A DNA stretch of 64,000 bases from Bacteroidota bacterium (GTDB taxonomy: Bacteria > Bacteroidota > Bacteroidia > Palsa-965). Both the position numbers and the translations under genes were made by a program. The stretch covers positions 10,154 to 74,153 of the forward strand of contig VBWE01000002.1 of assembly GCA_006218065.1 (NCBI GenBank). Reading direction: 5' to 3'. Below the pieces are notes generated by a model. It ran no database searches. It saw only the letters and a list, made by a program, of their open reading frames with translations, and was not told where the DNA came from. Below, piece by piece: positions 8,321 through 55,728 of the stretch; within the stretch, counting starts at the first letter, position 1, and every line of letters starts with the position of its first letter.

Positions 8321-8375
8321 GGAGCGGATTAATAGAAGTAAATGTCGAGAATTATCCGACACCTTTCAATTTGAA

Positions 8376-10724: not shown

Positions 10725-10946
10725 GTTGCAAAGGTAATATAACTTGTTTGAGTTGGATAGCCAAAAATAGCTAATATTAAATACAATGGCTGTTGTGTTT
10801 AGTTAAGGTTGGAGCAAATTTTGCTGTTTTTTCATAAAAAAGTTACGCGTTTTTGCCTTGAAACGCAACAAAATCAACGCTTTCAGCGTTTAAGTAGTAT
10901 AACTTTTCGATACAATACCGAACCGACTTTAGCCCTGATTTTGCTT

Positions 10947-23168: not shown

Positions 23169-25271
23169 TCAGCGGATGATGCCGAGTTTTTTAAATACTG
23201 CGCACCGGCCATCGCTTACCCGGAACATATACATTCCCGCAGGGAAACCGGAAAGATCGAAATGAACGGCATGCTGTCCCGGGACGAATGATTCGTTCAG
23301 CAGCGCAGCAACCCGCTTTCCCGACAAATCGAAAAGATCAACCTGTACCGGGGACGTTTCGCTGCAGCTGAACTCGAGCGTCATCATCCCATCCGTCGGG
23401 TTCGGATAAACGTGTGCAGCGAAAAAATCGTTTTCCGCATCCGGCTGATTTAATCCGCTCAGGATAGGAGGAGTGGTGAAATAAACGATCAGGTCGTTAT
23501 TGTTCCAGGGCGCCTGGATCACGGCCAGCGGGTTCCCGAGATCGTCCTGCGCTTTCAGCAGCGAAAGGCTCTGCCCGTTGTCCACGATCAAGCTCAGCAT
23601 ACTGTTCAGCGGCAGCAGCGACGAAGGAACCGTGATCACCAGCGTATCTGTAAACAGTTCCGTGGTGAACTGCACGCTGTCGCGCGAACGCCAGTAATCG
23701 CCATACGTTTCCAGGTCGCAGATAAATGTATTCGGCGGAAGCTGGCTGATGAGACTCATCTCGGCGGAAAGTTTGTACATCCTGTTCGGGTGAATCAGTA
23801 AAACAGCCGGGGCATAATTCGCCTGCGTCCGCTGTACCACGTCGAGCCAGGTGGTTACTTTCTGCGGATAGTTGGCTTCTGAAATCGGGTTGCCCGAAAA
23901 CACATCGGAAATAACCATCGGCAATTCCCATACGTTCTGCGAAAGCATGCCCGAGGAATTACGATCATACCGTCCGCGGAAAGGGAAATTCGTCAGCACA
24001 TCCGGCGCCGAATTTGAACTGTTAAAAACATACCCGAGCGTGTCCAGCGCATTGATCATCTGGTCGTGATACGCAAGATGCCCGGAACGAAACGTGCGGA
24101 CCGTCGTCCCGCAATCGGCCAGCAGCAGGTTTTTCGAAACCTCCGTTTCGCCGTACACCGAACCTCCTGCGGTCGGACCGCTGTTCGCATAGTAGGGCTG
24201 GTAGGTGATCGTCGTATTGCCGGTGTTTCCGAGCGGGAAAATCGTTTCGTTGTCGAAGTCGGGAAAGTGACCTACGGAATGACTCGCCAGTTTATGTCCT
24301 TTGGTAAGCAGGTATTGCACTTTCGGAATGCTCGACGCGTTATAAAAATCGCTTAGCCAGTCGTCGTTGATATAATGCGTTGTAATCAGGTACGTAGTCG
24401 ATATACCCATACCGTATTCGTAATCCGCATAGTAACTCATCGTATCGAAAGCGGTAGTCGCATCCACATCGTGCGTGATCAGCAGGGAAGAGCGGGTATT
24501 GTACGGACTCGTATGCAGCCAGGCGGAATAGGAGATATGCGTGGTGTAAATTCCTTTTACAAAAAGAATCACGGCATCGGTAGTCGGTTCAAAACCGTTC
24601 GAGTAAATACGCTGGGCATCGAAATCGTTGTTCAGCAGGTTGTTCTGGATAATGTTTTTGAACGAATAGCCCAGCGTGTACGCTTTTCCCGATCCGTACG
24701 GGTGGCGCGTCAGGGCAATGGAACTGTCTTCGTAAAAAGCGATCGCCTGCGCATTCTGAACGGAATAGGCGCGGGTGGTGAAAATATTCGGATAAGTCGT
24801 TCTTCCCAGGCTGATCTTCACCTCCGCCGTATCGTTCAGCCAGCGGCATTCCGCGTTGGCCGCTACCGTATCGAAACGCATGGTGTAACGCGTAGTGGAC
24901 GTTTGCTCGCCGCTGATCCCGAAAAGATTGTAAAGCGCGGCGTCGGTGACGATCGGTGTAAAAAGAATACCGCCGCTGAAAACGTAACTGTAAAGCGAAT
25001 CGCGCTCGGCCTGTACCAGCGTGCTGCTTTGCAGGCGCGAAGAAGTCACGATCATCCCGTAATCGATCGCCACGTAAACATCCGTCGTTTTGATATACGG
25101 GATGCCGGCGACTTTAAGCAAATGCTCGGCCGAAAAAAGTTCCGCATCGTTTGCTTCTGCATTGCGTACGGTACAATCCAGCAGGGCTACCGTGCGGCTG
25201 TTGCTGTTGGCGGAGCATGCCAGGCCACAAAAGAGCAGTATGGTCGTAAGTATGAAAAAGAAACGTATCAT
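23169..25271 (-). CDS. polysaccharide deacetylase (NodB-like) family protein with T9SS C-terminal sorting domain
   Basis: The product has a signal peptide. ..LLITHDVDATTAF.. and ..HSVGH.. are NodB-like motifs. The C-terminus ..YPNPTDGMMTLEF..GMYMFRV.. is a T9SS tail. Confidence 0.7.
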   Translation of the reverse strand: MIRFFFILTTILLFCGLACSANSNSRTVALLDCTVRNAEANDAELFSAEHLLKVAGIPYIKTTDVYVAIDYGMIVTSSRLQSSTLVQAERDSLYSYVFSGGILFTPIVTDAALYNLFGISGEQTSTTRYTMRFDTVAANAECRWLNDTAEVKISLGRTTYPNIFTTRAYSVQNAQAIAFYEDSSIALTRHPYGSGKAYTLGYSFKNIIQNNLLNNDFDAQRIYSNGFEPTTDAVILFVKGIYTTHISYSAWLHTSPYNTRSSLLITHDVDATTAFDTMSYYADYEYGMGISTTYLITTHYINDDWLSDFYNASSIPKVQYLLTKGHKLASHSVGHFPDFDNETIFPLGNTGNTTITYQPYYANSGPTAGGSVYGETEVSKNLLLADCGTTVRTFRSGHLAYHDQMINALDTLGYVFNSSNSAPDVLTNFPFRGRYDRNSSGMLSQNVWELPMVISDVFSGNPISEANYPQKVTTWLDVVQRTQANYAPAVLLIHPNRMYKLSAEMSLISQLPPNTFICDLETYGDYWRSRDSVQFTTELFTDTLVITVPSSLLPLNSMLSLIVDNGQSLSLLKAQDDLGNPLAVIQAPWNNNDLIVYFTTPPILSGLNQPDAENDFFAAHVYPNPTDGMMTLEFSCSETSPVQVDLFDLSGKRVAALLNESFVPGQHAVHFDLSGFPAGMYMFRVSDGRCAVFKKLGIIR

Positions 25272-27037: not shown

Positions 27038-28183
27038 TCAGTTGCGGATGATTTTTTGTACCAGCACTTTTTCTTCCGATGCAAGTACCAACTGGTAAAT
27101 ACCGGGAGCCCAAGCGGCGGCGCTGATTACGAAATGCTCCTGCTGGCCTGTGCATGCGCCGGAGAAAATAAGTTTACCGTCCGTAGCAAATATGTTCACC
27201 TTGAAATCACCCGGCTCTTCTATCCGTAAATGCAGTTCGTTCTGCACCGGGTTGGGAAAAGCCGCAACCGTTTCGTTCGCCGGATGGTTTTCGTTAACTG
27301 CAAGGGTGGAAGTGCAGGTGGAATTGCACTGGCAGTTGGAAACGTTTGCACCGAAAAGGCCTAAATTCTGGTTAATGCCGGCGCACATGTCGAGGTAGCT
27401 GCCGTCTTGTCCGAAATAATTATAATTCTGCGCTACGCCGCCGACAGAAAACCCTGCACAGGGGGCGCTCGGTGTTAGCGGTCCCGTTACAATGCCGAGA
27501 TTGGTAAACCAGCCGGTAACCATTACCCGGCAGGTAGTATGAAATACCCCAAGGTTGCCAAAAAGATCACCTACCGTGAGGGGCCCCGAATTCGTAAAAT
27601 TACCGATAAACACTTCCTGCGAAATGTTTTCAAAATCGCCGCCGGTGGTGATATCGCCGGTATTGGTGCCTTCCACTTCGTTGAGCCACATGTTGTTTGA
27701 AATAGTCATGCTTCCTGCATTATGAAAAAACAGGGTGGTTGGTGAAGTGGTCGGCGAAATGATCTCCATACGGAAACCGTTGCCGGAGTATATTCCCGTA
27801 TTGGTGAACTGCATATTGGCTCCAAAACCGGAAAGCGAATCGACGGAAGCAGTGCCGGAATTTTCAAGTGTTCCGGAACTGATGTTGACCATGGGCGAAG
27901 TAATTGTTCCCGAAGAAGTGAGCATGCCCGAATTAATGGTAATGGTGGCTCCGCTGATATTGCCGCTGTTGCAAACGATGCCGCCATTGATGGTAATATT
28001 ACCCTGCAGAATACCGGAGGGGCTGATGCATAAGGTTTGACCGGGCCCTACGGTTTGTGCGGCTGTAACTGTTCCCGAAAGGGTGCTGGTGCAGTTGGTA
28101 CATTGTGCCCGCGCAGGGCTTACCAAAAGACTGAGCAGGCCTGCGATGCAGGTTATACCGATAGAATTGATTTTCGTTTTCAT
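27038..28183 (-). CDS. T9SS C-terminal sorting domain protein (paralog 1)
   Basis: The product has a signal peptide. After the signal peptide comes ..AQCTNCTSTLSGTV... The C-terminus ..FPNPVQNELHLRIEE..GIYQLVL.. is a T9SS tail. Confidence 0.7.
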   Translation of the reverse strand: MKTKINSIGITCIAGLLSLLVSPARAQCTNCTSTLSGTVTAAQTVGPGQTLCISPSGILQGNITINGGIVCNSGNISGATITINSGMLTSSGTITSPMVNISSGTLENSGTASVDSLSGFGANMQFTNTGIYSGNGFRMEIISPTTSPTTLFFHNAGSMTISNNMWLNEVEGTNTGDITTGGDFENISQEVFIGNFTNSGPLTVGDLFGNLGVFHTTCRVMVTGWFTNLGIVTGPLTPSAPCAGFSVGGVAQNYNYFGQDGSYLDMCAGINQNLGLFGANVSNCQCNSTCTSTLAVNENHPANETVAAFPNPVQNELHLRIEEPGDFKVNIFATDGKLIFSGACTGQQEHFVISAAAWAPGIYQLVLASEEKVLVQKIIRN

Positions 28184-28226
28184 GATATTTCTTTTTAAAG
28201 TCCGTTCTGTTAAATGTTTTGCCAGA

Positions 28227-29375
28227 TCAGTTACGGATGATCTTCCGGATAAATACCTGGTCGCCGGCTGTTATAACCAGCTGATAAATACCCGCATCCC
28301 AGTGCGACGTGTCGATCGTCAGTTTTGATAAACCTTTGTAATCGCCCGCGTAAACGATTCTGCCGTCAATGGCGTAAACCATGACGCTGCCGGCGACCGT
28401 TTGAGAAACTTCTACGTTTAACTGATCCTGTACCGGGTTGGGAAAAACGCCCGCTGCAATTTCTTCTGCAGATATGCTGCCCGTGGAGGTCGTTACTGTA
28501 CAAACACTGTTGCACTGGCAAAGCGTAATATTACTACCCGGCGGCGGGCCGGCGTCAAAATAACCGCCGGCAGCACACATGTCGAGGTAACTGCCGTCTT
28601 GTCCGAAAAGCATCATATTGTCGGCCCAGCCCGAAACGGAAAAACCGGCACAGGGTGCTGATGAACTGCTGGGACCGGTTACAATGCCGAGATTAACCCA
28701 CGACCCGTTAACGATGACGCGGCAGTTCGTGTGAAAAACGTCGAAGTTCTCGAACATTCCGGTAACCTGGAGCGGGCCATCATTGGTGAATGAACCGGCA
28801 TACACCCATTGCGACATGCTGGCAAAACCATTGCCGGTAGTGATGGAGCCTGTGTTGGTGGCGTTGATTTCCATCAGGTAAAGTTTTCCGGAAAGCGTCA
28901 TCGTGCCGGCATTCAGAAAGAACAGGTTAGTAGATGATTGCGAAAGATTTGCCCGCTCCAGCCTTAGCCCGGTACCGGTGTACACACCGTAGTTGTTGAA
29001 GTGGATATTCGCTCCCAGGCCGTCCACGGAATCTACCGCTGCTGTGCCGGTGCTGGTAAATGTTCCAGAACTGATACCGAACAAGGTTGTACTCAGCAAG
29101 CCGGCGCTGGTTATAGTACCGCTGTTGAGTACAATGGACGCATTTGCAATTGTGCCATCGTTGCAAACCGTTCCGCCGTTAATCACCAGGTTGCCCTGCA
29201 ATACACTGTTGGGTGCAATGCACAAGGTTTGTCCTGCGCCAACGGTTTGCGTGGCACTAACCGTTCCTGTTATGGTACTGGTGCAGCCGGTACATTGTGC
29301 CTGCAATTGCGAAAGGAAAACAACAGGCAATACGGCTGAAAAAAGAAAGTGTTTAAAAACAGTTTTGGTATTCAT
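28227..29375 (-). CDS. T9SS C-terminal sorting domain protein (paralog 2)
   Basis: Same architecture as 27038..28183 (AQCTGCTSTITGTV.. and ..FPNPVQDQLNVEVS..GIYQLVI..). The two are colinear paralogs. Confidence 0.7.
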   Translation of the reverse strand: MNTKTVFKHFLFSAVLPVVFLSQLQAQCTGCTSTITGTVSATQTVGAGQTLCIAPNSVLQGNLVINGGTVCNDGTIANASIVLNSGTITSAGLLSTTLFGISSGTFTSTGTAAVDSVDGLGANIHFNNYGVYTGTGLRLERANLSQSSTNLFFLNAGTMTLSGKLYLMEINATNTGSITTGNGFASMSQWVYAGSFTNDGPLQVTGMFENFDVFHTNCRVIVNGSWVNLGIVTGPSSSSAPCAGFSVSGWADNMMLFGQDGSYLDMCAAGGYFDAGPPPGSNITLCQCNSVCTVTTSTGSISAEEIAAGVFPNPVQDQLNVEVSQTVAGSVMVYAIDGRIVYAGDYKGLSKLTIDTSHWDAGIYQLVITAGDQVFIRKIIRN

Positions 29376-39027: not shown

Positions 39028-41319
39028 TCAGGCAATGCGCACGCCGATCACCAGCACGTCATCCACCTGTTCGAGATCGCCTTTCCACCCGGCAAAGATC
39101 CGTGCGAGATGCTCCTGCTGAACCGGCGCGGGATCAGCGGCGCATTTGATAAGATTTTCGCGGAGGCGGGAGTATTTGAATTTTTTTCCGCCGGCGCCGC
39201 CGAACTGGTCTGCGAAACCATCGGTAAACAGGTAAAGCATATCGCCGGGCTGTACGGGAATCGTATGACTTGTAAAACCGTTTTTATGCTGAGACCAGCC
39301 GATGGGCATTTTGTCCGGGGCGAATTCGAGCAGTTCGCCGTTGCGCACCAGCCAGAGCGGGTTATTCGCCCCGGCGTATTCCACCGTGCGGTTCAGCGGA
39401 TCGAAAGCGCAAAGGGAACAGTCCATCCCGTCTTTTACTTCTGCAGATTCGTTTTCTTCCGGGTTGAGCACTTTCACGATTTCTTCGCGGACATGGTTGA
39501 GGATTTCCGCAGGCCGGGTGATTTTTTTTTCGTAAGTCGTTTCGTTGAGCTTGGTGATATTCAGCAGCGACATAAAAGCGCCGGGAACGCCGTGGCCGGT
39601 ACTGTCGCCGCAGAGTAACAGGAAACGGCCCGAAGGTTCGGCATACGCCCAGTAAAAATCGCCGCTCACGATATCTTTCGGCAGGTAAAAAATAAAATGC
39701 CCCGGCAGGTGACGCGAGATCAGCGACCCGGAAGCGAGCAAAGCCGTCTGGATGCGTTTGGCGTAATGAATGGAGCCGAGAATTTCCCCGTTTTTCTGTT
39801 CGATCAGTTCTTTCTGCGATTCGACCTGGCCCTTCTGTTTTTCAATGATCTGTTTTTGTTTACGCGTGATCCGGAAACGGTTGAAAAGCAGGACCAGCGA
39901 AACCAGTACGAGGAGCAATCCGCCCGAAACGAGCCAGATCACCAGCCGCTGCTGTGCGCTGCGGGCGTCGGCCAGGGCCTTGTCGGCGGCGTCTTTTATT
40001 TTCATCGTTTCCGTTTTCTTCTCGAAAGCTGCGGTGGCTTCGAGCCGGGCGATGGCGCGGTTGCGGTCGTCGGAGTTCAGGCTGTCATTAAGCTGCACAT
40101 ACTTCCGGAAATAAATCAGCGCATCAGCCGGCCGGTTCATTTTGTCGTACAGGTCGGAAAGACCTTTCAGCACCTCGACCTGGTTCTGTACGCGGTGAAA
40201 TTTTTCGGCCAGCGTTTTGGCGCGGAGCAGCATGCTTTCTGCTTCGGCCCGGAATTCTTTTTTTTCCTGGAGTACCGAGCCGAGGTTGATGAGCGGGCTG
40301 ATCGCATCCGAACTGTCCGTGCCCAGCCCGCAGCGCACCAGGCCGTCCCGGTAATACCGGATTGCAGAATCGAGCAGGTTTTCATTCGCTTGTGTTTCCA
40401 CGCCCGGCTTATACATACTCGCAAAAACACCGCCGAGGCTGTTCAGCGCAGAAACCTGCAGCCCCGGCAGTTCTGCGGAAACCGCCGTGGCATAAGCCTG
40501 CCGAAGATACATGGCCGCAGAATCGTAACGGGAAAGGAACATGAACGAATTCCCGATATTGGTCAGTGCATTGATTTCGCCTTTTTTATTTCCCTGCTCG
40601 TTGTACAATATGCGCGCTTTGCGAAAATAGCCGAGAGCGGTATTCCATTCTTTCAGTTTCCGGTAGATGATCCCGAGGTTCAGCATGGAAGAAGCCACTT
40701 CCGGCCGGAGATTTTGTTTTTCCCGGATCTGCAGCGCTTTCTGGTGAGCTTCCAGCGCTTCGGTAAGCTGGTCCAGGCGCTGGTGGCCTTGCCCGAGATT
40801 GTTGTATAGCCGCGCCTGCTGCGCCGGGGGAACTTTACTACACTGGTAGTCCAGCCCGGTATAATAGTGCGTCAGCGCTTCTTCGCAATATCCGCGTACG
40901 GAATAAAAATTTCCGAAATCGAGTTCTGCCCCGTGTATCTCCGACGAATCCTTCAGTTCGCGGAAAACATGCAGCGCTTTGCGCAGATGCTGCACGCAGA
41001 GTGAATCTTTTTTCAGGTCGTCATACGTGCGTCCCATCCGTCCGTAGGCTTGCGCGAGCCCGCGCGTATCAGCGAGTTTTTTTGCGAGCGCTTCCATTTT
41101 ACGGGCATAACCGAGCGCATTGTCGTACTGATTTTTCTTGTAATATGTATCTGCAATTTTACCCAGCAAAGAAACGCCGGAACTGTCGAGCCGTATCGAT
41201 TTTTCCAGTTGCAGCAGGCTATCCAGCCGGTTATCGCCCGCGTGCAGCAGGGAAGAAAAAAAGAAAGGAAGAAAAAACAGGAAAGAAAAAAAATATCGCC
41301 GGGTTGCCGCAATGCGCAT
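39028..41319 (-). CDS. TPR-repeat sensor protein with TM helix and C-terminal PP2C/SpoIIE-family phosphatase domain
   Basis: Signal/TM regions and TPR repeats are followed by ..LVIWLVSGGLLLVLVSLVLLF.. The PP2C-like C-terminus is ..DIVSGDFYWA..LLCGDSTGHGVPGAFMS..MLYLFTDGF... Confidence 0.75.
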   Translation of the reverse strand: MRIAATRRYFFSFLFFLPFFFSSLLHAGDNRLDSLLQLEKSIRLDSSGVSLLGKIADTYYKKNQYDNALGYARKMEALAKKLADTRGLAQAYGRMGRTYDDLKKDSLCVQHLRKALHVFRELKDSSEIHGAELDFGNFYSVRGYCEEALTHYYTGLDYQCSKVPPAQQARLYNNLGQGHQRLDQLTEALEAHQKALQIREKQNLRPEVASSMLNLGIIYRKLKEWNTALGYFRKARILYNEQGNKKGEINALTNIGNSFMFLSRYDSAAMYLRQAYATAVSAELPGLQVSALNSLGGVFASMYKPGVETQANENLLDSAIRYYRDGLVRCGLGTDSSDAISPLINLGSVLQEKKEFRAEAESMLLRAKTLAEKFHRVQNQVEVLKGLSDLYDKMNRPADALIYFRKYVQLNDSLNSDDRNRAIARLEATAAFEKKTETMKIKDAADKALADARSAQQRLVIWLVSGGLLLVLVSLVLLFNRFRITRKQKQIIEKQKGQVESQKELIEQKNGEILGSIHYAKRIQTALLASGSLISRHLPGHFIFYLPKDIVSGDFYWAYAEPSGRFLLLCGDSTGHGVPGAFMSLLNITKLNETTYEKKITRPAEILNHVREEIVKVLNPEENESAEVKDGMDCSLCAFDPLNRTVEYAGANNPLWLVRNGELLEFAPDKMPIGWSQHKNGFTSHTIPVQPGDMLYLFTDGFADQFGGAGGKKFKYSRLRENLIKCAADPAPVQQEHLARIFAGWKGDLEQVDDVLVIGVRIA

Positions 41320-41445
41320 ACAGAAATTTCCCCGGGTTGTCCGAAAAAATGTATGCCCCGGAAGCCATGACCTGATCATAGGTAACGGAATTGTTCCAGC
41401 CCTGAAAGTACGGAGAATCTTTTCCCGCGGAAAGCTGTGGAAAGG

Positions 41446-42369
41446 TTACACCAGAGAAATGTCGAACTGTACAAGATCAACAAACTCCTGCACGCGCTCG
41501 TCCACCTGTTCCTGCGTCAATCCCACGAGCCTTTCCACGCCGAATTTTTCCACGCAGAACGAAGCCATCGCCGAACCGAAAATGATGGCGCGCTTCATAT
41601 TGTCGAAGGAAATATCTTTTGTTTCGGCCAGGTAGCCGATGAATCCGCCTGCAAAACTGTCGCCGGCGCCGGTCGGATCGAAAACGTCTTCGAGCGGCAG
41701 GGCGGGAGCGAAGAAAACCTGCTCTTTATTGAAAAGCAGCGCGCCGTGCTCCCCTTTTTTGATGATGAGCACTTTCGGACCCATTGCGAGAATTTTCTGC
41801 GCGGCTTTCACCAGCGAATATTCACCGGAAAGCTGGCGGGCTTCGGCGTCGTTGATGGTCAGCACATCTACCATGCCCAGCGTTTTGTGCAGATCGTCCA
41901 TGGCGGTATCCATCCAGAAATTCATGGTATCGAGCACCACCAGTTTTGGTCGTTTTTTCAACTGCGCCATCACTTTCTGCTGGATGGAAGGCATCAGGTT
42001 ACCCAGCATCAGGAAATCGGGCTCTTTGATGGAATCGGGCACAACCGGGTCGAAATTAGCCAGTACGTTCAGCTCGGTGGCCAGCGTATCGCGGGTATTC
42101 ATGTCCGCATGGTAGCGTCCCGACCAGAAAAACGATTTTTCCCCGGCTTTCACCTGCAGGCCTTCGGTGCTGATGCCGTGTTTTTGCAGCATGTCGATTG
42201 ACGACGATGGGAAATCGTCGCCCACAACGGACACCAGCGTGATTTCCTTATTAAAATAAGAGGCTGCCAGCGAGATATAGGTAGCCGCTCCGCCGATAAT
42301 TTTATCTGTTTTTCCGAAGGGTGTTTCGATGGCGTCAAAAGCCACCGTACCAACAACAAGAAGGGACAT
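41446..42369 (-). CDS. PfkB-family carbohydrate/nucleoside kinase
   Basis: ..GGAATYISLAASYF.. is at the N-terminus and ..DPTGAGDSFAGGFIGYL.. carries the ribokinase-family signature. Confidence 0.8.
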   Translation of the reverse strand: MSLLVVGTVAFDAIETPFGKTDKIIGGAATYISLAASYFNKEITLVSVVGDDFPSSSIDMLQKHGISTEGLQVKAGEKSFFWSGRYHADMNTRDTLATELNVLANFDPVVPDSIKEPDFLMLGNLMPSIQQKVMAQLKKRPKLVVLDTMNFWMDTAMDDLHKTLGMVDVLTINDAEARQLSGEYSLVKAAQKILAMGPKVLIIKKGEHGALLFNKEQVFFAPALPLEDVFDPTGAGDSFAGGFIGYLAETKDISFDNMKRAIIFGSAMASFCVEKFGVERLVGLTQEQVDERVQEFVDLVQFDISLV

Positions 42370-42371
42370 AG

Positions 42372-42541
42372 TTCAGAGCTTGTTTAAATTAATTTTCTGC
42401 AACTCTTATGCATTTTTTCGAGTCATACTTCTTTGCTTTTTTTGGCCAGACGCCCTCCGGTATGACCTGCAAAAAGCGCCTTGTCTGCCTCGAAAACCTG
42501 CTTATAATAATTGCAGAAAATTAGTTTAAACAAGCTCTGAG
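42372..42541. repeat. 31-bp near-perfect inverted repeats (30 of 31) flanking a 108-bp spacer
   Basis: 42372-42402 ttcagagcttgtttaaattaattttctgcaa matches rc of 42511-42541 ctcagagcttgtttaaactaattttctgcaa. Confidence 0.8.
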
Positions 42542-42637
42542 TCTTAAAAATTTCGCCCAAAGATATTGTTTATTTGCTCTGAAACCTTAATTTTGCCGTC
42601 CGTTTCGGTTAAAAAACGGGCGTTCTTCAGAAAACTA

Positions 42638-42664
42638 CAACCAGAAATATTCCTCCTTAGCTCA
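42638..42664 (+). repeat. orphan copy of tRNA-Asn 5' end plus 12-nt upstream leader
   Basis: caaccagaaatattcctccttagctca matches 42729-42754 (caaccagaatattcctccttagctca) preceding and entering the intact tRNA. A GC hairpin (ccgcc..ggcgg) follows it. Confidence 0.7.
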
Positions 42665-42739
42665 TCCGCCTGCGCCCTGCTCCGGCGGACGGGGCTGGAA
42701 GAAAAGAAATAACGTTCTTTAATTATTCAACCAGAATAT

Positions 42740-42813
42740 TCCTCCTTAGCTCAGCTGGTTAGAGCACATGACTGTTAATCATGGGGTCCCTGGTTCGAGC
42801 CCAGGAGGGGGAG
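42740..42813 (+). tRNA. tRNA-Asn (anticodon GTT)
   Basis: Cloverleaf folded by hand: acceptor TCCTCCT/AGGGGGA, D arm GCTC/GAGC, anticodon stem CATGA/TCATG with loop CTGTTAA, T arm CCTGG-TTCGAGC-CCAGG, discriminator G. Confidence 0.85.
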
Positions 42814-42821
42814 CAGATATA

Positions 42822-42855
42822 AAGGCTTGGAAGTCAAAAACTTCTGAGCCTTTTT
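42822..42855 (+). terminator. tRNA terminator hairpin plus T-run
   Basis: aggcttggaagt-caaaa-acttctgagcct followed by ttttt. Confidence 0.5.
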
Positions 42856-42926
42856 CTTTTTGTGCATTTTTCAACGCACGCAAAAAAACAAAAAGGTGCG
42901 GAATCTGAGTGCGGAAATGCGGAAAA

Positions 42927-44384
42927 TTAATCGGTGATATCGGGGTCTTTATCGGGCGTACTCTTCTTTCGGAGTTCTTTGAGCTCTGCTTCTCGCTTCT
43001 CTTTGTTAAAGACAGTAAAGTTCTGTGCGGCGTGCGCCAATATGCGCTTGTCGGCATAGTGCTTCTTCATGATTTTTGTGTTCGCATGGCCGGTGATTGC
43101 CTGCGCGTTTTCCATGCCGAGTTCGCCGGAGAGGTGGCTGATATTTGTTCTGCGCAGGCACCCAAACGTCAGTTCCTTGCCGGTTTGTAATTGCTCGTAG
43201 TAGTGAGAAAACGAACGAGATAGAAAGCTCGTTATGGTATCCCGCTGCATTGTTTCATCGGGAGCAATGAGGTAGGCGTCCTTGCCTTTGTGTTCTTCTT
43301 CCCCGAGTCGAGTGAGCAGGTCGCGAAGCTCGCTTGTCATGGGAGCATAGTTATACTTCCAGTTCTCCTCAGAGAGTCCTTTTTGTCGATTGACTTTATA
43401 ATCGGGAACTTGCAGATGGAGCGGAACTCCATTTTTGTCATAAACAACATCACTCCACTTCATGCGGGCGACTTCTTCGCGTCGCCTGCCGGAATAGACA
43501 CCAAGCTCAAGCGCATCTTTAAACCATGGTTTATAGAGATTCTTACGTTTGCCGTTTAAGAGAGTCCGCCAGCCGAGTTCGGGCTTTTGAACGATTTCGA
43601 GGAGGCGCATAAATTCATCCTCGTCGATTGTTTCTATGTTTTCATTGACTGCCTGTCGGGTAACTGTCTCAAACGGGTTGCCGATCAAGTAGCCCTGACG
43701 GGCAAGGTGTTTGTAGAAGCTCGTGAGAATCGACATTGCCCGGTTATATGAGCGAGGGCCCTGTTTTAAGTCCTCTTGCAGATACTTGTGGAACTTGCCA
43801 ATCATAGTATCGTTGATCTGGTCAACACGGAGGCTCTCGATGTCATAACCGCTCTTTTTGAGAGATGCTGCGAAGTACCGAAACATGCGCTCAACCTGTT
43901 CAATATGCTCTTTGGTTCGTTCTTTTTGCCGATGCTCAGGAACATTCTCGTTATTGAGAAAGCCGATGTATTCGGACATGAGCTCAAGCAGGTTGTACGT
44001 TTTCTCTGGTGTCTGTTCTGTATTTGGGAACACAGGACGAACAAGAGGCTCGATGGGAGCGACTGACACAAGCGGTACGGGTGCCGTTTTCTCTATTTCT
44101 GGCTTTCCCGCTTCTTTAATCTCTTTTTGAAAGTCGAGGGCTTGTTTTACAGCCTCGTCGTACTCTCGCGTTTCAAGAATCTTTGTTTTTCTCTCATTCT
44201 TTGTGCCTGGAACATGCACAATGACCTTGTATCTCTGTTTGTCGCCATACGCGCAGGTAGAGAGCGACTTGCCTGATTGTTTACACTTCCCTTCAACGAG
44301 GGTGCCGCATCCATAGCAGTATATTTTCAGGCCGGGAATCTTTTTCTTTGGCGGTATATGGAGCGGCTTCTCATCCATGCTCAT
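42927..44384 (-). CDS. int: tyrosine-type site-specific integrase
   Basis: The C-terminal catalytic region is ..LRRTNISHLSGELGMENAQAITGHANTKIMKKHYAD.. (R, HxxR, Y). It is tRNA-adjacent. Confidence 0.9.
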   Translation of the reverse strand: MSMDEKPLHIPPKKKIPGLKIYCYGCGTLVEGKCKQSGKSLSTCAYGDKQRYKVIVHVPGTKNERKTKILETREYDEAVKQALDFQKEIKEAGKPEIEKTAPVPLVSVAPIEPLVRPVFPNTEQTPEKTYNLLELMSEYIGFLNNENVPEHRQKERTKEHIEQVERMFRYFAASLKKSGYDIESLRVDQINDTMIGKFHKYLQEDLKQGPRSYNRAMSILTSFYKHLARQGYLIGNPFETVTRQAVNENIETIDEDEFMRLLEIVQKPELGWRTLLNGKRKNLYKPWFKDALELGVYSGRRREEVARMKWSDVVYDKNGVPLHLQVPDYKVNRQKGLSEENWKYNYAPMTSELRDLLTRLGEEEHKGKDAYLIAPDETMQRDTITSFLSRSFSHYYEQLQTGKELTFGCLRRTNISHLSGELGMENAQAITGHANTKIMKKHYADKRILAHAAQNFTVFNKEKREAELKELRKKSTPDKDPDITD

Positions 44385-45045: not shown

Positions 45046-45765
45046 ATGCAAAAACAATCACGAAACCACCAAGTAGCGGCTGTTCTGGTGGCAGCAATTG
45101 CCCGCAATGCGGATACGCCTCTTGAGGCTGACAAAGCGTTTAATAAGTTTTGCAAGCTTTTTTACAACAAAGTTCTTTACATGTGCCTGGTATTGAGCAA
45201 AAGGTATAGAGTTCCAAACTACAAGCAAACAGCGGAAGAGGCTTGTCAGGACACTCTGCTTAATATTCGCAACAAGGCAAAACAGTATGACCCATTAAAG
45301 GGTTTTGTTTTCAGTTGGATTGCGGGTATTGCCGCGAATGAATTACTTCAACGATTAGAAAAAGAAGAATGCCATGTTTCCTTGGAAGACATAGAGATAC
45401 GCAAAGCCTTTCGGGAAAAACAAATACGGGAAAAAAGAGCAGAAGATGATAATGAGGAGTTGCTTTGGGATAATAACGAAGCAGGGCAGGCTCGCTCCAA
45501 AGGGAAAGAAATAAGGCGAGATCCAAGAATAAGCGAGGTCATCGCAATAGTTGAAAAGCTTAGTGAGGTACAGCAGGACATCTTAATGACAACAGTCCTC
45601 TACTCAGGAAGGCTTCCAGACTCTGAGAAAGAACGGATTTCAATAAGATACGGTATTGGAAAAAAATCGATCGATGCCTACCGCATGAGAGCAATAAAAG
45701 CAGTTGAGAAATGTATAGGTAGACCCATTGATATAGACTCACTAAAAACACATCTTGCCAGATAG
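45046..45765 (+). CDS. sigma-70 family RNA polymerase sigma factor (ECF-like)
   Basis: The C-terminal region-4-like HTH is ..VQQDILMTTVLYSGRLPDSEKERISIRYGIGKKSIDAYRMRAIKAVEKC... The region 2 assignment is weaker. Confidence 0.5.
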   Translation: MQKQSRNHQVAAVLVAAIARNADTPLEADKAFNKFCKLFYNKVLYMCLVLSKRYRVPNYKQTAEEACQDTLLNIRNKAKQYDPLKGFVFSWIAGIAANELLQRLEKEECHVSLEDIEIRKAFREKQIREKRAEDDNEELLWDNNEAGQARSKGKEIRRDPRISEVIAIVEKLSEVQQDILMTTVLYSGRLPDSEKERISIRYGIGKKSIDAYRMRAIKAVEKCIGRPIDIDSLKTHLAR

Positions 45766-46086: not shown

Positions 46087-46893
46087 TTATTTCACATCAA
46101 ACTTCTGTATCGGATAATTCGCTATCAACACCTCTATTTTCCGTTTCGTTTTTACTGCCCGGTTCGATGAGATCGCAATCGGTAGGTCGAGTTTTACCAT
46201 GTACCACCCATTTTGTGCGACCGCTTGGTCAAGCAGCATCGAAGGATATGAAGAGAGCAGGAATTTTCCTTTGATGGTTGCAAGTAGCTTAAGGAGTTCC
46301 AGATAATTTGCTTCAGAGTAACCGCTATAGTGGCCCTGATGAGTGCCGATATATGGCGGATCACAGTAAAAGAAGCTTGTTTCAGAATCACGGGAGCGAA
46401 TGACTTTAAGCGCATCCGTGCATTCGATCTGCGCATGTTCAAGGCGTTTGGCAAAGATGGCTGTGCAGTTTTCTTTCTTGTTATTGAAGCGATGGACGGC
46501 GGTGTTCTCTGTTCGGCCATATCCCCATGAACCGTTTAAACTCGATGCGTAACTCTGATAGATGCGCACCCAGACAGCCCAGGCGCGTTTGACCTTATCA
46601 AAAAACGCAGGGAGTGAAAGGATGAAGGATGCGTATTCATGGGCAGCACGAGCATACAGGGTATTTCGGATTTCTCTTTGCAACGCCGGGAAATTGTTTT
46701 TGACGACGTGATAGAAATTAACAAGCTCAAGATTCGTATCGTTAATGACTTCAATCTTCGATGCTTCCTTCGCGAAGAAAACCGCCCCGCCGCCGAAGAA
46801 TGGTTCCGCATAGAGCGTGTGTGGTGGGATGAGATGCAGGATTGTTTTTACCAAACGTTGCTTTCCTCCGTAATAGGAGAGGATGGGTTTCAT
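46087..46893 (-). CDS. dam: DNA adenine methyltransferase (Dam / D12 class N6-adenine MTase)
   Basis: ..LSYYGGKQRL.., ..EPFFGGGAVFF.. (AdoMet binding) and ..FFYCDPPYIGTH.. (DPPY catalytic motif) are present. The start is at the internal Met MKPILSYYGGK. Confidence 0.85.
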   Translation of the reverse strand: MKPILSYYGGKQRLVKTILHLIPPHTLYAEPFFGGGAVFFAKEASKIEVINDTNLELVNFYHVVKNNFPALQREIRNTLYARAAHEYASFILSLPAFFDKVKRAWAVWVRIYQSYASSLNGSWGYGRTENTAVHRFNNKKENCTAIFAKRLEHAQIECTDALKVIRSRDSETSFFYCDPPYIGTHQGHYSGYSEANYLELLKLLATIKGKFLLSSYPSMLLDQAVAQNGWYMVKLDLPIAISSNRAVKTKRKIEVLIANYPIQKFDVK

Positions 46894-47024
46894 GGATGAC
46901 GTGAGGAAGCCGCTCGCTTCCCTTTTGTGTATTGCTACCCTGTGAGAAAAGGGATCACTAACACACGAGAGCATTCAAGGATCTTCTTTCGAAGATGATG
47001 AACGCTACCTGATAATGTCGACTG

Positions 47025-48197: not shown

Positions 48198-49067
48198 CTA
48201 ATTCAAATAAGCCCGTGCTGTGTTTTCGAATTCAAGATCATTGTATTGCTCGTAAACGAATGTTGATATCGGGTTACTGTGGCCTAATCCTTTTTGAATG
48301 AATGCAAGCGGTGCAAGTTGATCTCGCCGTTTATGTGCCCAACCATGCCTGAAACTATGCGGAGTGATTTTTTCTTTTATTCCAGCTTTATGAACATAGT
48401 ACTGAACTCTTCGTTGCACAGAACGAGGAGTGAGTCGGATTGTCCACCCACGTGTGCACCAACCTACAAAAAGAGATTTAGCTCCATTCGTTTTATGTAA
48501 TCCCAGACGAATTGCCATATATTTCATTAAATACTCCTGTGTTGTTTGCGACCACATAATGATACGAGGCTTCCCTGTTTTCTTCGTAGCGATAACTGTT
48601 GAGGTCTTATTTTCGTCAATATTAGTGACTTCTAAATCGCATAATTCTGAAACACGTATACCGGTATCCCATAGAAGGTGTACCATTACTAAATCCCGTA
48701 AGGACATAAATTCATTCGATGGAATTACGGACGCTATCTTTTCAAATTCGGAGGCTGTAATCGCACGATGAGATTTGACGTGTATTCTTGGAAGCTTAAT
48801 AAGGGAAGGAGAAATACATCTGTAGTGCTGCTGTTGCCAAAACGCGAAAAAATTCTTGAGAACAACAATGGCAAATTGTATTGTTGCAGAATTATATCGC
48901 ACTTCCAGCCAAGAACGATATTTTACTATATCGCTGATCGCGTAGTGCTCAAGTGGTTTATTATCACAGAGACTACTAAAGCGAATCAGCCAGATTTTGT
49001 AATTGATGCTTGCTCGCGGCGCGTAAGTCCCCTTCCATTCTAAATATTCTTTTATTTTTTCTTGCAT
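48198..49067 (-). CDS. small tyrosine recombinase (XerC/XerD-like, phage integrase family)
   Basis: ..HSFRHGWAHKRRDQLAPLAFIQKGLGHSNPISTFVY.. (HxxR..Y) is present and an N-terminal SAM-like domain precedes it. The start is at the internal Met MQEKIKEYLEW. Confidence 0.85.
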   Translation of the reverse strand: MQEKIKEYLEWKGTYAPRASINYKIWLIRFSSLCDNKPLEHYAISDIVKYRSWLEVRYNSATIQFAIVVLKNFFAFWQQQHYRCISPSLIKLPRIHVKSHRAITASEFEKIASVIPSNEFMSLRDLVMVHLLWDTGIRVSELCDLEVTNIDENKTSTVIATKKTGKPRIIMWSQTTQEYLMKYMAIRLGLHKTNGAKSLFVGWCTRGWTIRLTPRSVQRRVQYYVHKAGIKEKITPHSFRHGWAHKRRDQLAPLAFIQKGLGHSNPISTFVYEQYNDLEFENTARAYLN

Positions 49068-49080
49068 AAAAACGCAAAAC

Positions 49081-49199
49081 CCACCAAGATGAACTGGCGG
49101 GTCTGCGCTATCCTGTTTCCAGGATACGCTAAAGCATAGCAAGAGATAAAGAAAAAATAAAGTGAAGAAGGCTATTGGACCCCGCTGTTCATCTGGTTC
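49081..49199. repeat. ~22-bp imperfect inverted repeats flanking a 74-bp segment, between divergent recombinase and NYN genes
   Basis: 49083-49103 accaagatgaactggcgggtc matches rc of 49178-49199 aaccagatgaacagcggggtcc at ~18 of 21. An inner hairpin atcctg..caggat is present. Confidence 0.55.
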
Positions 49200-51283: not shown

Positions 51284-52243
51284 TTAGAAATGTATTTTTA
51301 CTTCGCCGGTTCCGTCGGCGTTCATGATGTAAATATTGCTCTCCGAGAATATAGTATTATCGCCAATCAATTTCTGATCCCATCTGCTTGCAATAATCTT
51401 GCTGCCGTCTCCGGAAATATCGATAACCACATACAATTTGGTGTCGCAGAATGTCTTGATGATCTGCGTCTGTAAACCGGGCAGGTCTGTTATGAAAAAA
51501 GAACGTGATGTTTTCCAAAGCAGGCGCTGAGAATCCGGGAACCAGTCGCTGTAGCTGATGATGTCTTTCGCGTCGCCGATCTCGATGGCAGCGACTTCCG
51601 AAATCTGCCCGGTGTTCGGATTGATACTGATAATTGCATTTGATGAAGGGCCAGTGCTCACGGGAGAAGATATTTTTTGGCTGTCATTTGACCAGGAGCC
51701 GTTGCTCAATATAAATCCGGGAAGCGTATCGAGAGGATTGCCCTCATCATCTGCAATGATCGAATAGTTATTTGCCCCGTCTGTCCGCCGGAACACGTAT
51801 CTATCCCCCGCATAATTCCACACGGCATCGAAGCATGACGAGGTGAATGTTAGTTGAGTCAGACTGTCGCCGTTGCTTTTGATCTTCCACACATTGTTGT
51901 CGCCGTGATTGAAAAGAATCCAGCCGTTTCTTCCCCAGTCGGGTTTTTGAAATATGCTTGTTGTGAGAAGATAGTCGTTACCGGTCGAGCGGTTTTTTAT
52001 TCGCAGTTCCGTTTGACCGGTACTTTTCGTTTCTCGCACATAGACGAATTCATTACTGTTATTTGGATTGAAGCACGGAGCGAGATAGAGAGAGGCCGGA
52101 TATTGGTATGAATATCCAAACGGTCCCGTTGATGGCGGGAAGTCAAAACAATTCCCCTCAAGCGAGAAAGCAATATCCTTGCTGCATGAAAAAAACAACA
52201 TGCAGCAAGAGATAATCGCTATGGCTCGGTGTAAAGAAATCAT
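51284..52243 (-). CDS. lipoprotein with TolB-like (PD40/WD40-like) beta-propeller repeats
   Basis: The product has a lipobox (..CCMLFFSCSK). Repeated ..DG..I.F.S.R.G..NIY...DG.. patterns are present. Confidence 0.5.
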   Translation of the reverse strand: MISLHRAIAIISCCMLFFSCSKDIAFSLEGNCFDFPPSTGPFGYSYQYPASLYLAPCFNPNNSNEFVYVRETKSTGQTELRIKNRSTGNDYLLTTSIFQKPDWGRNGWILFNHGDNNVWKIKSNGDSLTQLTFTSSCFDAVWNYAGDRYVFRRTDGANNYSIIADDEGNPLDTLPGFILSNGSWSNDSQKISSPVSTGPSSNAIISINPNTGQISEVAAIEIGDAKDIISYSDWFPDSQRLLWKTSRSFFITDLPGLQTQIIKTFCDTKLYVVIDISGDGSKIIASRWDQKLIGDNTIFSESNIYIMNADGTGEVKIHF

Positions 52244-55200
52244 TTGTGTACCACTATCATTTTTTTCTGGATACTCCCTTTTTCAGTTGTAACCGTGGCA
52301 ATATATGCACCATCTGAGACATCTGTCGTTTCAATTGTCGTCGTGTGCATTCCCTCTGCTAATTTCCCCATATTCGTCGACTTAACCAACCGTCCTTGCA
52401 TATCGTAAAGATCGACGGTTACTGCGCTTGCTTCACTCAACGAGACTGGAATCGAAAAAGAATTGTTAGACGGGTTCGGAAACGGTTCACCGACATTGAC
52501 AGCATTGCTTGCCGATTCGGTCATGCCGGTAAGCGTGGGATCGAAGGTCAAAACACTGAACGCGCAGAGTGTCCCGAATTGTGTCGTTGGGAGGAAAGTA
52601 TTCACGGCCTGTCCTGTCGTTAAGTTAAACGTAAAATGATAAAAGTATGTTTCCATGACCGCCTGGTTATTGGTATAGGAAACGATTGTGCTCCACGCTT
52701 CAGTGCCGATAGGGTTTGACAGACTCCATCCGAATGATGAGTTATAGCGGGGCCACGCCGAGAGAATCGTTTCTCCGACCGGAATCGGAGCGTAGTTTAG
52801 TGTATGGGTAACTTTATGGATATCGGCAAGATACGCTCCTGCGGCAACGCTCTGGTAATTGTTTGGAAGAATGACGGCGACGTTTTGCGCAAATAAGCTC
52901 GGACTGACGCTTGATCCAGTCGTGTTTGTTGCAAAGTGATAGACCTTGTACGCGGGATAGTTCACGAAGGTAAGCGACTGGCCCGCGTTGATTCTGCCGT
53001 ACCCGGTGTATTGGTCATACCCCGGCGCAGACGGTGACACGGAAAGATCAACTGCAGCAGCCTGGAGGAGATACTCAATATCCTCGGGAGCAAGATGAAA
53101 CAGGAATGGAGTGGTCTGTGTGTTTACTTTGCTCACCATCAATGCGGCAGTTCCTGACACATGGGGTGCGGCGGCAGATGTCCCGTCGAATGGCTGATAA
53201 CCGTTTGTGATTGATTCAAGCGTGTACACAATATCAAGATCACCGGGTGCGCAAAAATCCATCCCTCCGCCATAGCTTGACGAATAGCTTGAGCTGCCGT
53301 TGCTTGGGGTCTTGTATTCTCCGTCATTGCCGGTTGAGCCGACGTTTAAGACGAACTCATCGTTGTAGCATGCAGGAACGGTAATATTCGAGTTCCCGTC
53401 ATTTCCCCGAGCTCCGACAACGACGACATTATTTCTCGCAGCGAAACGGACGGCATCTTTCAGAAGCGATATGCTGGCTGCAGGAAGCGGCCCGGCATCA
53501 CCCCTCCAACTGTTATTCATAATATGCAGACCATAACCGCCCTGGGTTGTACTGGTCGCTCCTCCGACGACTCCGTTTGCGATCAGCGAATAGGTCGCAA
53601 CGGCACTATTCGCGTCAAAGAGTTTCATGTCAAAAAGCGTCACGCCATCATATTGCGCCGTGCCGTTTCCCCCGGCAATGCCTGCTATGCCGGTACTGTT
53701 ATCCCGCAGGGCACCGATAATCCCTGCACATGCAGTTCCGTGTCCGAGCAGATCGTACGTCGGCGCAAGCGGAGCGTTGGTAATAAAGTTGAATCCCCCG
53801 GCGACTTTTCCTTGCAGGTCGGGATGTGTTTGGTCGATGCCGGAGTCATAAACGCCGACACGGATAGTTGCGTTCCCTTTCTCGATATCCCACGCCGGTT
53901 CAATATTGATTCCTGCACTCGGGAAGGGATTATTTGGATGCAGGCTGAATTGGTTGCTTATGTATTGCGGATCATTCGGCACATCGGCCAGTTCGGCAAC
54001 GTAGTTCGGATGTGCGTACCAAATTTCCGGCTGCACGGTATTGAGCGAATCGGCGACAGCGATTTCCATACCTGGCTGCACGAACAGCCGGAGTGCGGCC
54101 CAAAAAGACGAGATCGGAACAGTATCGCCGAGTCTTGATATTGAAACGGTGTCGTTTGTCGAGAGCTTTAAAAATATCTTCGCAACTTTCCAATCGGTTA
54201 CGTCCGTACCGAGCTTTGCGTTCATCACCGCAATCGCAGACGGTTTGACGAACTCGTGCAAGACACCAAATTGTTTATCGGGATCATTGACGGCAGGAGT
54301 ATCGATAACGCTCGGGTCGAAACGAACAACGACTTCACCGGTTGCAAATGCCATTCCCGGCAAGCTTGTTGTATCAACCACAAGGGCCGTTTCAAGGAAT
54401 GAGTATTTGATTGTCGCGTACTGATCGGCGTTGCCGGTCGATGATTTTCCAGTGACATACATCGTGCTGTTTCGTATCGACACGTCAAACGATTTGTCAC
54501 TCGCATTTGTGGGAGCATTGAAAAAATTCTCCCAGGCCTTCGTGCCGGAGCTGTCGTACTTGATTGTCAGGTAATCTTTGTTTCCGGCAGCGTTCGTCAT
54601 TTCCCCGGTTACATACACATTTCCGGAATTATCGACGGTCAGCTTATGTGCTTCTCCGAAGTCCGTCGGCGAGGGTGCCGCTTCTCGTTTTACCCATTGT
54701 TGTATTCCGGCAGCCGAATATTTTGCGGTCGTAAAATCCTTGCCGCCGTTTGTTTTCTTGGTGTACCCGGTGAAGATCACGTCGCCGTTTGCGTTAAGAG
54801 CGAGCGCATTGGCGCAGTCCTCAAGATTTTCGCCGTTGTATTGCTGCACCCACTGCAATGTGAGAGCCGTGTTCAGTTTCAGCACGAGTGCATTGCCTGC
54901 GGTTGTATTCTGTGCAGTACCGCCAGAGACGAACACATTGCCTGCATTATCGAGCGTGATCGCTGTCGCCTTGTCATAGCCGTTGCCTGAAATAGCATGA
55001 CGATACGCTCCGACTTGTGTTCCTGCCGTGTTGTATTTGATTACGGTAATGTCGGAATTGAAGAAACTGCTTGCGCTTGAGCCCGCAACATAGCTATTCC
55101 CGGCGTTATCAACTGCAAGCCCGAACGGAATATCCGGGAGGTTAGCGAAGTTGTATCGCTTCACCCATTGTTGCATACCGGCACCGTTGTATTTGATCGT

Positions 55201-55728
55201 CACGAAATCGGAGTTCAGTGCATTTCCCGTGCCAACGCTTGCGCCGGTTATGTACACGTTGCCGGTATTGTCGAGGGCTATTGCCGCTGCAATATCGTTT
55301 TTGTTGCCAGTACCGTTATACAATACGCTCCAGAGGAGACTGCCGGTTGCACTGTATTTGAGCGTTACAAAATCATAGCTGCTCGTCGCATTACTCCAAG
55401 TTGCACCAGTTACGAAAATATTACCGCTATTGTCCCGGATGATCGCGCTGCCGAAATCAGGACCGTTCGATGTTCCGTTGTATTGCTGTTGCCAGCAAAT
55501 CGTTCCGTTAGAATTGTATTTGACGGTCAGGAGATTCGTTCCTTGACTTATTGTCTTGGTATTTCCGACAATAACAGCGCAGCCGCTGTTATCTATAGCC
55601 GTCATGGTGAAATCAACCGTATCGGGAAACGCGTTGACGGCTTCCCATTCGCGATTACATAATGTTGTTTGTCCGTCTACACCGTATGCTCCAGCTATCA
55701 GGAGAGAAATAAGAATAGCCTTTTTCAT
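52240..55728 (-). CDS. S8-family subtilisin-like serine peptidase with N-terminal SBBP beta-propeller repeats and T9SS C-terminal sorting domain
   Basis: SBBP repeats recur (..DNSGNIFVTG..DFVTLKYS..G..W..). The subtilase catalytic triad motifs are GVYDSGID (Asp), HGTACAGIIG (His) and GTSAAAPHVSG (Ser). The T9SS tail is ..FPNPSNNSFSIPVS..GAYIATVTT... Confidence 0.85.
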   Translation of the reverse strand: MKKAILISLLIAGAYGVDGQTTLCNREWEAVNAFPDTVDFTMTAIDNSGCAVIVGNTKTISQGTNLLTVKYNSNGTICWQQQYNGTSNGPDFGSAIIRDNSGNIFVTGATWSNATSSYDFVTLKYSATGSLLWSVLYNGTGNKNDIAAAIALDNTGNVYITGASVGTGNALNSDFVTIKYNGAGMQQWVKRYNFANLPDIPFGLAVDNAGNSYVAGSSASSFFNSDITVIKYNTAGTQVGAYRHAISGNGYDKATAITLDNAGNVFVSGGTAQNTTAGNALVLKLNTALTLQWVQQYNGENLEDCANALALNANGDVIFTGYTKKTNGGKDFTTAKYSAAGIQQWVKREAAPSPTDFGEAHKLTVDNSGNVYVTGEMTNAAGNKDYLTIKYDSSGTKAWENFFNAPTNASDKSFDVSIRNSTMYVTGKSSTGNADQYATIKYSFLETALVVDTTSLPGMAFATGEVVVRFDPSVIDTPAVNDPDKQFGVLHEFVKPSAIAVMNAKLGTDVTDWKVAKIFLKLSTNDTVSISRLGDTVPISSFWAALRLFVQPGMEIAVADSLNTVQPEIWYAHPNYVAELADVPNDPQYISNQFSLHPNNPFPSAGINIEPAWDIEKGNATIRVGVYDSGIDQTHPDLQGKVAGGFNFITNAPLAPTYDLLGHGTACAGIIGALRDNSTGIAGIAGGNGTAQYDGVTLFDMKLFDANSAVATYSLIANGVVGGATSTTQGGYGLHIMNNSWRGDAGPLPAASISLLKDAVRFAARNNVVVVGARGNDGNSNITVPACYNDEFVLNVGSTGNDGEYKTPSNGSSSYSSSYGGGMDFCAPGDLDIVYTLESITNGYQPFDGTSAAAPHVSGTAALMVSKVNTQTTPFLFHLAPEDIEYLLQAAAVDLSVSPSAPGYDQYTGYGRINAGQSLTFVNYPAYKVYHFATNTTGSSVSPSLFAQNVAVILPNNYQSVAAGAYLADIHKVTHTLNYAPIPVGETILSAWPRYNSSFGWSLSNPIGTEAWSTIVSYTNNQAVMETYFYHFTFNLTTGQAVNTFLPTTQFGTLCAFSVLTFDPTLTGMTESASNAVNVGEPFPNPSNNSFSIPVSLSEASAVTVDLYDMQGRLVKSTNMGKLAEGMHTTTIETTDVSDGAYIATVTTEKGSIQKKMIVVHK

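Follow-up and report, generated by a model that had tools for sequence, protein, structure and literature searches.

A probable MITE-like palindromic element between the predicted promoter and the start codon of pfkB in an uncultured Bacteroidota bacterium

The stretch of DNA analyzed here (64,000 nucleotides, hereafter called the window), which we assign to an uncultured Bacteroidota of the class Bacteroidia, contains an intergenic spacer from which pfkB, encoding a PfkB-family sugar or nucleoside kinase, and a tRNA-Asn gene are read in opposite directions. PfkB has a very large number of close homologues, and most of the 120 listed are 307 amino acids long. The N-terminus MSLLVVGTVA of the kinase is common to the relatives designated L031 and L032, and the protein of a third relative, L035, begins with MSLLVVGTV. 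A long palindromic element occupies the pfkB side of the spacer, and an island with its own integrase genes begins on the far side of the tRNA gene. The coordinates of all of these features in the window are collected in Table 1.

Table 1. Features of the pfkB and tRNA-Asn spacer and of the adjoining island, in window coordinates.
Feature	Position	Strand	Remarks
pfkB, PfkB-family sugar/nucleoside kinase	41446–42369	−	Pfam PfkB, 1.6e-36; ATG 3 nt from the element
Whole palindromic element, including the TCA/TGA triplets	42373–42540	.	168 bp, 38% G+C
TCA triplet beside the GAG... end	42373–42375	.	Outermost inverted-repeat base pairs or half of a 3-bp TNA duplication
Left terminal inverted repeat, pfkB-proximal arm	42373–42409	+	First 22 nt, TCAGAGCTTGTTTAAATTAATT, are the family-conserved terminus
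Non-coding interior	42410–42503	.	Partly self-complementary, e.g. TTTTCGAG / CTCGAAAA
Right terminal inverted repeat, tRNA-side arm	42504–42540	−	Minus-strand read TCAGAGCTTGTTTAAACTAATT...
TGA triplet beside the ...CTC end	42538–42540	.	TGA near this position in the empty site of L031, the closest relative
Predicted pfkB −7 box, TATCTTTG	42558–42565	−	Bacteroidetes type; kept in all relatives
Predicted −7 box of the divergent tRNA-Asn promoter, TAATTTTG	42588–42595	+	Kept in relatives; untouched by the insertion
tRNA-Asn (GTT), neighbor outside the element	42740–42814	+	199 bp beyond the right arm
Tyrosine integrase, opens the island directly after tRNA-Asn	42927–44384	−
ECF-like sigma factor, island	45046–45765
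Dam methylase, island	46087–46974
Second integrase, island	48198–49142
S8 peptidase with T9SS tail, island	52240–55728
Ser/Thr kinase, island	62103–62942

The sequence TAnnTTTG is the Bacteroidetes-type −7 box consensus, known from Bacteroides and Flavobacterium promoters, and it is said to go back to Bayley et al. in 2000 and Chen et al. in 2007. Two perfect matches to this consensus stand back-to-back in a core of ~60 bp that is nearly invariant among the window, L031, L032, and L035 (87–93% PfkB identity), and these boxes probably mark the divergent promoters of pfkB and tRNA-Asn. On both strands of the palindromic element itself no TAnnTTTG sequence is present, and the only two boxes of the spacer fall outside it. 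A sigma-70-like pair of hexamers, TTGTCT-16-TATAAT, is found at 42481 to 42508; such matches are no commoner than in shuffled sequences, and this is not the promoter type of the host phylum. As judged from these positions, the element lies downstream of the predicted pfkB promoter, in the 5′ leader of the gene, and leaves the predicted tRNA promoter intact. An earlier reading of the DNA, made from the sequence only, had placed the element in the promoter region of pfkB, an assignment that does not agree with the location of the conserved box.

The tRNA side of the spacer has features of its own. The first 14 nt of tRNA-Asn, together with ~12 nt of upstream leader, are duplicated 89 bp upstream (42646–42664 and 42735–42753), and a G+C-rich segment of 63 bp separates the two copies. 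This 5′ segment is single copy in the relatives L031, L032, and L035, and the duplicate may be left over from a second tRNA or from a 5′-side rearrangement. At the 3′ end of tRNA-Asn, an integrated element extends from 42927 to beyond 64000 and continues in the sequence designated L046. Past the Ser/Thr kinase gene and beyond the end of the window, this island carries SAVED, a DncV-like nucleotidyltransferase, and E2-CBASS, followed by a relaxase and a TraG-like coupling protein, such that it looks like an ICE or IME with a CBASS defence system. Three tandem units of ~102 bp, each ending in the tRNA-Asn 3′ end GCTCCCCCTCCTGGGCT, lie beside the intact tRNA in L035 (3566–3846) and look like the stacked attachment-site remnants of repeated integrations. 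Elsewhere in the window, several secreted proteins have T9SS C-terminal sorting domains (6971–8362, 23169–25271, and 27038–29375, all on the minus strand), one protein has an NADase-translocation F5/8 type C domain, and TPR-SpoIIE proteins are present. The sorting domains, a Phage_int_SAM_5 integrase, and the TPR-SpoIIE proteins assign the window to Bacteroidota; it is not enterobacterial, and a search of 5,426 E. coli genomes gave no match.

A repeat search of the window defined the two arms of the palindrome, which are 37 nt each, 92% complementary, and separated by a gap of 94 nt. The outer 30 nt of the arms (42373–42402 and 42511–42540) contain a single mismatch. When the 30-mer arm pattern was sought with up to three mismatches, it was found at two places in the 64-kb window, which are the two arms, and there were 0 matches in 100 shuffled sequences. 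Thus, the near-perfect terminal inverted repeats (TIRs) that the sequence-only reading had reported between pfkB and tRNA-Asn are real, although its limits of 42372 to 42541 are one base too wide on each side. Its estimate that the tRNA gene lies about 200 bp away agrees with the distance in Table 1. The element measures 168 bp, or 162 bp (42376–42537) if the TCA and TGA triplets at its outer edges are counted as target, and its G+C content compares with 48.5% for the window as a whole.

Because the interior is also partly self-complementary, the entire unit folds as a single long hairpin, with a predicted free energy of −72.7 kcal/mol for the plus strand (z = −8.3) and −73.0 kcal/mol for the minus strand (z = −8.9). 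No gene call spans the element in the contig's public annotation, and the only open reading frames that overlap it are mechanical ones of 45 to 66 amino acids, which is consistent with the earlier description of the spacer between the repeats as non-coding. The view that the structure is not a simple terminator likewise holds. No intrinsic terminator was found in the element, whose stem of about 80 bp is A+T-rich and is not followed by a T tract, and the sole report of the terminator scan is at 42821 to 42853, after tRNA-Asn.

Inverted repeats of this kind could also delimit an inverton, wherein a recombinase flips a promoter segment and thereby switches pfkB or tRNA-Asn, as occurs at Bacteroides capsule and fimbrial loci. 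The Bacteroides invertons served by Mpi/Tsr-type recombinases have inverted repeats around a segment of 100 to 200 bp upstream of a gene, with a recombinase nearby. The locus resembles them in having repeats of 30 to 37 bp on either side of about 100 bp of DNA, immediately before a gene, a tyrosine recombinase gene (42927–44384) about 400 bp off, and the sigma-70-like hexamer pair noted above. However, the frequency of that hexamer match in shuffled sequences and the absence of a TAnnTTTG box on either strand of the element, with perfect boxes standing just outside in the conserved core, argue against an internal promoter. That recombinase gene encodes the integrase of the island at the tRNA-Asn 3′ end, and the gene downstream of the element codes for a kinase of the housekeeping type and is not a surface-structure locus. 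The element is self-complementary throughout, unlike the Bacteroides invertons, and with an interior that largely pairs with itself, flipping would change little. Its orientation is the same in the window, L001, and L002, in which two independent assemblies are represented; this is a weak test, as it compares assemblies rather than reads. Moreover, the element is not conserved at the locus among relatives, and other members of its family reside in non-promoter contexts (see below). A flippable promoter, one of the candidates raised by the sequence-only reading, is for these reasons very unlikely.

To place the element in an evolutionary context, we compared the orthologous loci L031 (PfkB 93% identical), L032 to L034 (90%), and L035 (87%), which include three distinct sequences. 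At all five loci, pfkB is divergent from tRNA-Asn and the intergenic core AAACGGACGGCAAAATTAA.G.TT....AAATAAACAATATCTTTG is retained. The element is absent from the orthologous site at each of them (5/5). The distance from the core and its −7 box to the ATG is 26 to 36 nt in the relatives versus 188 nt in the window, and the extra spacer length in the window is exactly the palindromic unit. The fact that the relatives keep the core yet are without the element indicates a lineage-specific insertion, and on the basis of this comparison we consider the element to be such an insertion and not a conserved regulatory hairpin. By the sequence-only reading, a lone copy that relatives keep at the same position would have argued against mobility; the sites of L031 to L035 are empty.

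Palindromes can arise as assembler artefacts, and the source of the window is a short-read metagenome assembly, such that a palindromic mis-join made by the assembler must be weighed as well. However, an identical stretch of 401 bp occurs in two separate assemblies, ERZ27284376 and ERZ27284380, and the window sequence is identical in the ENA metagenome contig ERZ27284376 k119_135821, with 0 mismatches over 20.9 kb. The element lies within a contig of 196 kb whose synteny is conserved on both sides, its interior is imperfect as a palindrome, and related elements occur in an isolate genome. The probability of a mis-join is accordingly close to nil.

The isolate genome is that of Sinomicrobium sp. 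N-1-3-6 (S. soli, Flavobacteriaceae). A search of 185,579 species genomes (one per species) with the exact arm 20-mer TCAGAGCTTGTTTAAANTAAT gave two matches only, both in this genome and on two different contigs. Each has a matching second arm, which the search did not demand, and the two S. soli palindromes, 170 and 222 bp long, carry the 22-nt termini TCAGAGCTTGTTTAAAYTRATT at both ends. The window copy has the same termini at both of its ends, and its right arm, read on the minus strand, agrees with end A of the S. soli elements at all 22 nt. The shorter of the two S. soli elements (about 170 bp, L004) follows the stop codon of a gene for a Do-family protease and precedes the terminator of that gene, and the longer one (about 222 bp, L003) stops 30 nt short of the ATG that opens a DUF1080 gene. 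Both fold into long hairpins. They are present in opposite orientations and are 85% identical apart from a 52-bp indel. The similarity between the interiors of the window and Sinomicrobium elements is marginal (best z = 3.4), and it is not significant in the other orientations. A metagenome scan with a similar arm 20-mer returned 26 stretches that we reject as chance matches, since they are lone arms without a partner, mostly inside coding sequence. The lack of a partner arm in all 26 indicates that the S. soli matches are unlike a chance outcome.

The S. soli sites were compared with those of other Sinomicrobium genomes. In the closest relative (L041, protease 92% identical), 26 nt separate the stop codon from the same terminator and the element is absent, as it is from the protease/UvrD site of S. 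kalidii (L043 and L044). The region upstream of the orthologous DUF1080 gene in strain M5D2P9 (L045) is also without the element, though its spacer is unalignable. Separately, the protease/UvrD spacer of Sinomicrobium sp. M5D2P9 (L042, 11441–11710) holds a different insert of ~270 bp with the inverted-repeat core AACGTGAGTTCGATTTA, such that the spacer looks like an insertion hot spot of small inverted-repeat elements.

The distribution of the termini also bears on whether the palindrome could have formed at this locus, for instance through a local palindromic duplication, as a structured cis-regulatory RNA or leader hairpin that is retained to control pfkB and is not mobile. The fold is indeed very stable on either strand, the element falls squarely within the predicted 5′ leader, right up against the start codon, and a single copy is seen in the genome of the window. 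However, the element is absent at every orthologous locus examined, including that with a 93% identical PfkB, and a search of Rfam 15 over positions 41000 to 44000 passed the tRNA alone, with just a 10-bit tmRNA noise match on the element. The same 22-nt termini are present at unrelated loci of another genus, downstream of a protease gene and upstream of a DUF1080 gene. Furthermore, the termini are conserved on both strands whereas the interior of the stem has diverged, a pattern of transposase-binding sites rather than of an RNA. Thus, the long structured RNA that the sequence-only reading had listed among its candidates appears quite improbable.

The family to which the element belongs is real but low-copy. 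One copy was found in roughly 74 kb of the genome of the window (the 64-kb window and roughly 10 kb of the same contig), at least two are present in S. soli, and four other Sinomicrobium genomes, of which about 95 kb was covered, gave none. A fuzzy TIR search and an nhmmer profile built from the three copies revealed no more copies in about 470 kb of collected DNA. Plasmid searches with the whole element, an S. soli element, and both arm types (E up to 10) gave nothing but brief, A+T-rich matches to unrelated taxa that we attribute to chance. Among viral contigs, a pattern of two arms with a gap between them had no match. Five viral-contig stretches that carry the arm pattern were rejected, as the profile search matched just their seeded arm of ~20 nt. 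A literature search on the terminus sequence returned one irrelevant match, and the supplements of a paper on Amoebophilus insertion sequences contain no terminal-repeat sequences. The TIR family GAGCTTGTTTAAAYTRATT is apparently undescribed and rare.

The precise ends of the element depend on how the outer triplets are read. If the ends are GAGCTTG...CAAGCTC, then the flanking 3-bp TNA sequences are TGA/TGA in L003, TCA/TCA in L004, and TCA/TGA in the window. By this reading, TNA triplets flank three of the three copies and perfect 3-bp direct repeats flank two of the three. If the triplets belong inside the inverted repeat, the flanking 2-bp sequences are GT/GT in the window, AT/AT in L003, and CC/GA in L004. 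The spacers of the empty sites (L031 to L035, and the Sinomicrobium protease and DUF1080 sites) are too diverged for a duplication to be read off.

A preference for TNA targets and the formation of 3-bp duplications are features of the IS1031 group of the IS5 family (PMC12016507), and one member of this group, ISLrh, has the terminal repeat GAACCTGTCTAGTATCT (PMC12016507). If the triplets are target, the ends of the element begin with GAGC.TGT.TA and are comparable to this repeat, and GAGCTTGTTTAAATTAA is like it at 9 of 17 positions in a comparison that was picked after the fact. The element differs from the group in having no transposase gene with it, and the TCA...TGA of the window copy is not a direct repeat. 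Taken together, the GAG ends and TNA flanks offer a hint that the mobilizing enzyme may derive from the IS5/IS1031 group. Neither the species genomes, scanned with the exact 20-mer, nor the plasmids and viral contigs yielded an autonomous element with such ends; exact-match scans pass over diverged termini. The window encodes an IS1595-family transposase at 10809 to 11852 on the plus strand (DDE_Tnp_IS1595, 9.9e-40, with a zinc ribbon), around which there are no convincing terminal inverted repeats. This gene was rejected as a parent of the 168-bp element because the ends are unrelated.

The very low copy number and the failure to find a partner transposase would also be expected of a dead relic that can no longer be mobilized, consisting either of the fused ends of an internally deleted insertion sequence or of an old repeat that is being lost. 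The S. soli copies, with only 85% identity and a 52-bp indel, are consistent with this interpretation as well. However, the near-perfect arms of the window copy, with one mismatch in 30, and its absence from a relative with a 93% identical PfkB both suggest that the insertion is fairly recent. A relic of this kind, which differs from our main interpretation in present-day activity alone, is unlikely.

We therefore favor a non-autonomous MITE-like element of 162 to 168 bp from a rare family, composed of termini of ~22 bp (TCA/GAGCTTGTTTAAAYTRATT) and a hairpin-forming body, and hold this to be the probable identity of the feature with good confidence. The element has the small size, the lack of coding capacity, the TIRs, and the insertion polymorphism by which MITEs are recognized. 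Bacteroidota genomes are rich in MITEs, some clusters of which span genus-to-phylum boundaries (bioRxiv 10.1101/2024.01.18.576219). Of the candidates put forward by the sequence-only reading, the MITE has gained from the empty orthologous sites and from the same termini at two unrelated S. soli sites, whereas a clear target duplication and a high copy number are not among the observations.

The element can be compared with the Correia/NEMIS elements of Neisseria and the ERIC/IRU elements of enterobacteria. These bacterial MITEs are in the same size class (about 100–250 bp) and are likewise non-coding, intergenic, and bounded by TIRs. They too form a long hairpin when transcribed, lie next to or inside transcription units, and exhibit presence/absence polymorphism. 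They have no sequence similarity to the element, and their copies number tens to hundreds, versus one seen here and two in S. soli. In addition, Correia elements have a TA target duplication, whereas the candidate duplications here vary among the three copies.

The insertion separates the start codon of pfkB from the conserved core of its predicted promoter. If the feature is a MITE-like element, then a DDE transposase encoded elsewhere would have moved it in trans via its termini, and the GAG ends and TNA flanks make the IS1031 group of the IS5 family a possible source of this enzyme. The native TAnnTTTG promoter would now transcribe the element within the pfkB leader, where it may fold into a stem (about −70 kcal/mol) with its 3′ arm reaching to 3 nt before the AUG. 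Access of the ribosome would be expected to be lower, barring cleavage of the hairpin or a transcription start within the element.

To model this arrangement, the pfkB transcript was started about 5 nt after the −7 box. Over positions −20 to −1, the mean unpaired probability comes to 0.20 when the element is present, versus 0.75 when the element is removed in silico and 0.59 to 0.79 for L031 and L032. By this calculation, the element is predicted to bury the 20 nt before the AUG in a stem. Bacteroidota are largely without Shine–Dalgarno-guided initiation, and leader structure is thought to govern initiation in this phylum. As a consequence, the insertion would be expected to reduce pfkB translation unless the stem is processed.

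The 22-bp termini are identical between the uncultured Bacteroidia lineage and the flavobacterial genus Sinomicrobium, and the distance from element to ATG is 3 nt at pfkB and 30 nt in S. soli L003. One could imagine that the family is a horizontally moving “leader hairpin” cassette that serves as a portable controller of translation or mRNA stability when it inserts between a TAnnTTTG promoter and a start codon, and that an uncharacterized transposase mobilizes it, but we regard this proposal as a long shot.

For annotation, the MITE-like interpretation means that an odd palindrome of 168 bp is to be understood as a mobile-element insertion and not as a regulatory switch. It also brings to light a rare TIR family (GAGCTTGTTTAAAYTRATT) that is common to two distant Bacteroidota lineages. 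The locus and its relatives provide a natural experiment, in which the same conserved promoter and gene occur with and without a hairpin of −70 kcal/mol near the start codon. If the family is mobile across orders, then it would be one more case of MITE spread between taxa.
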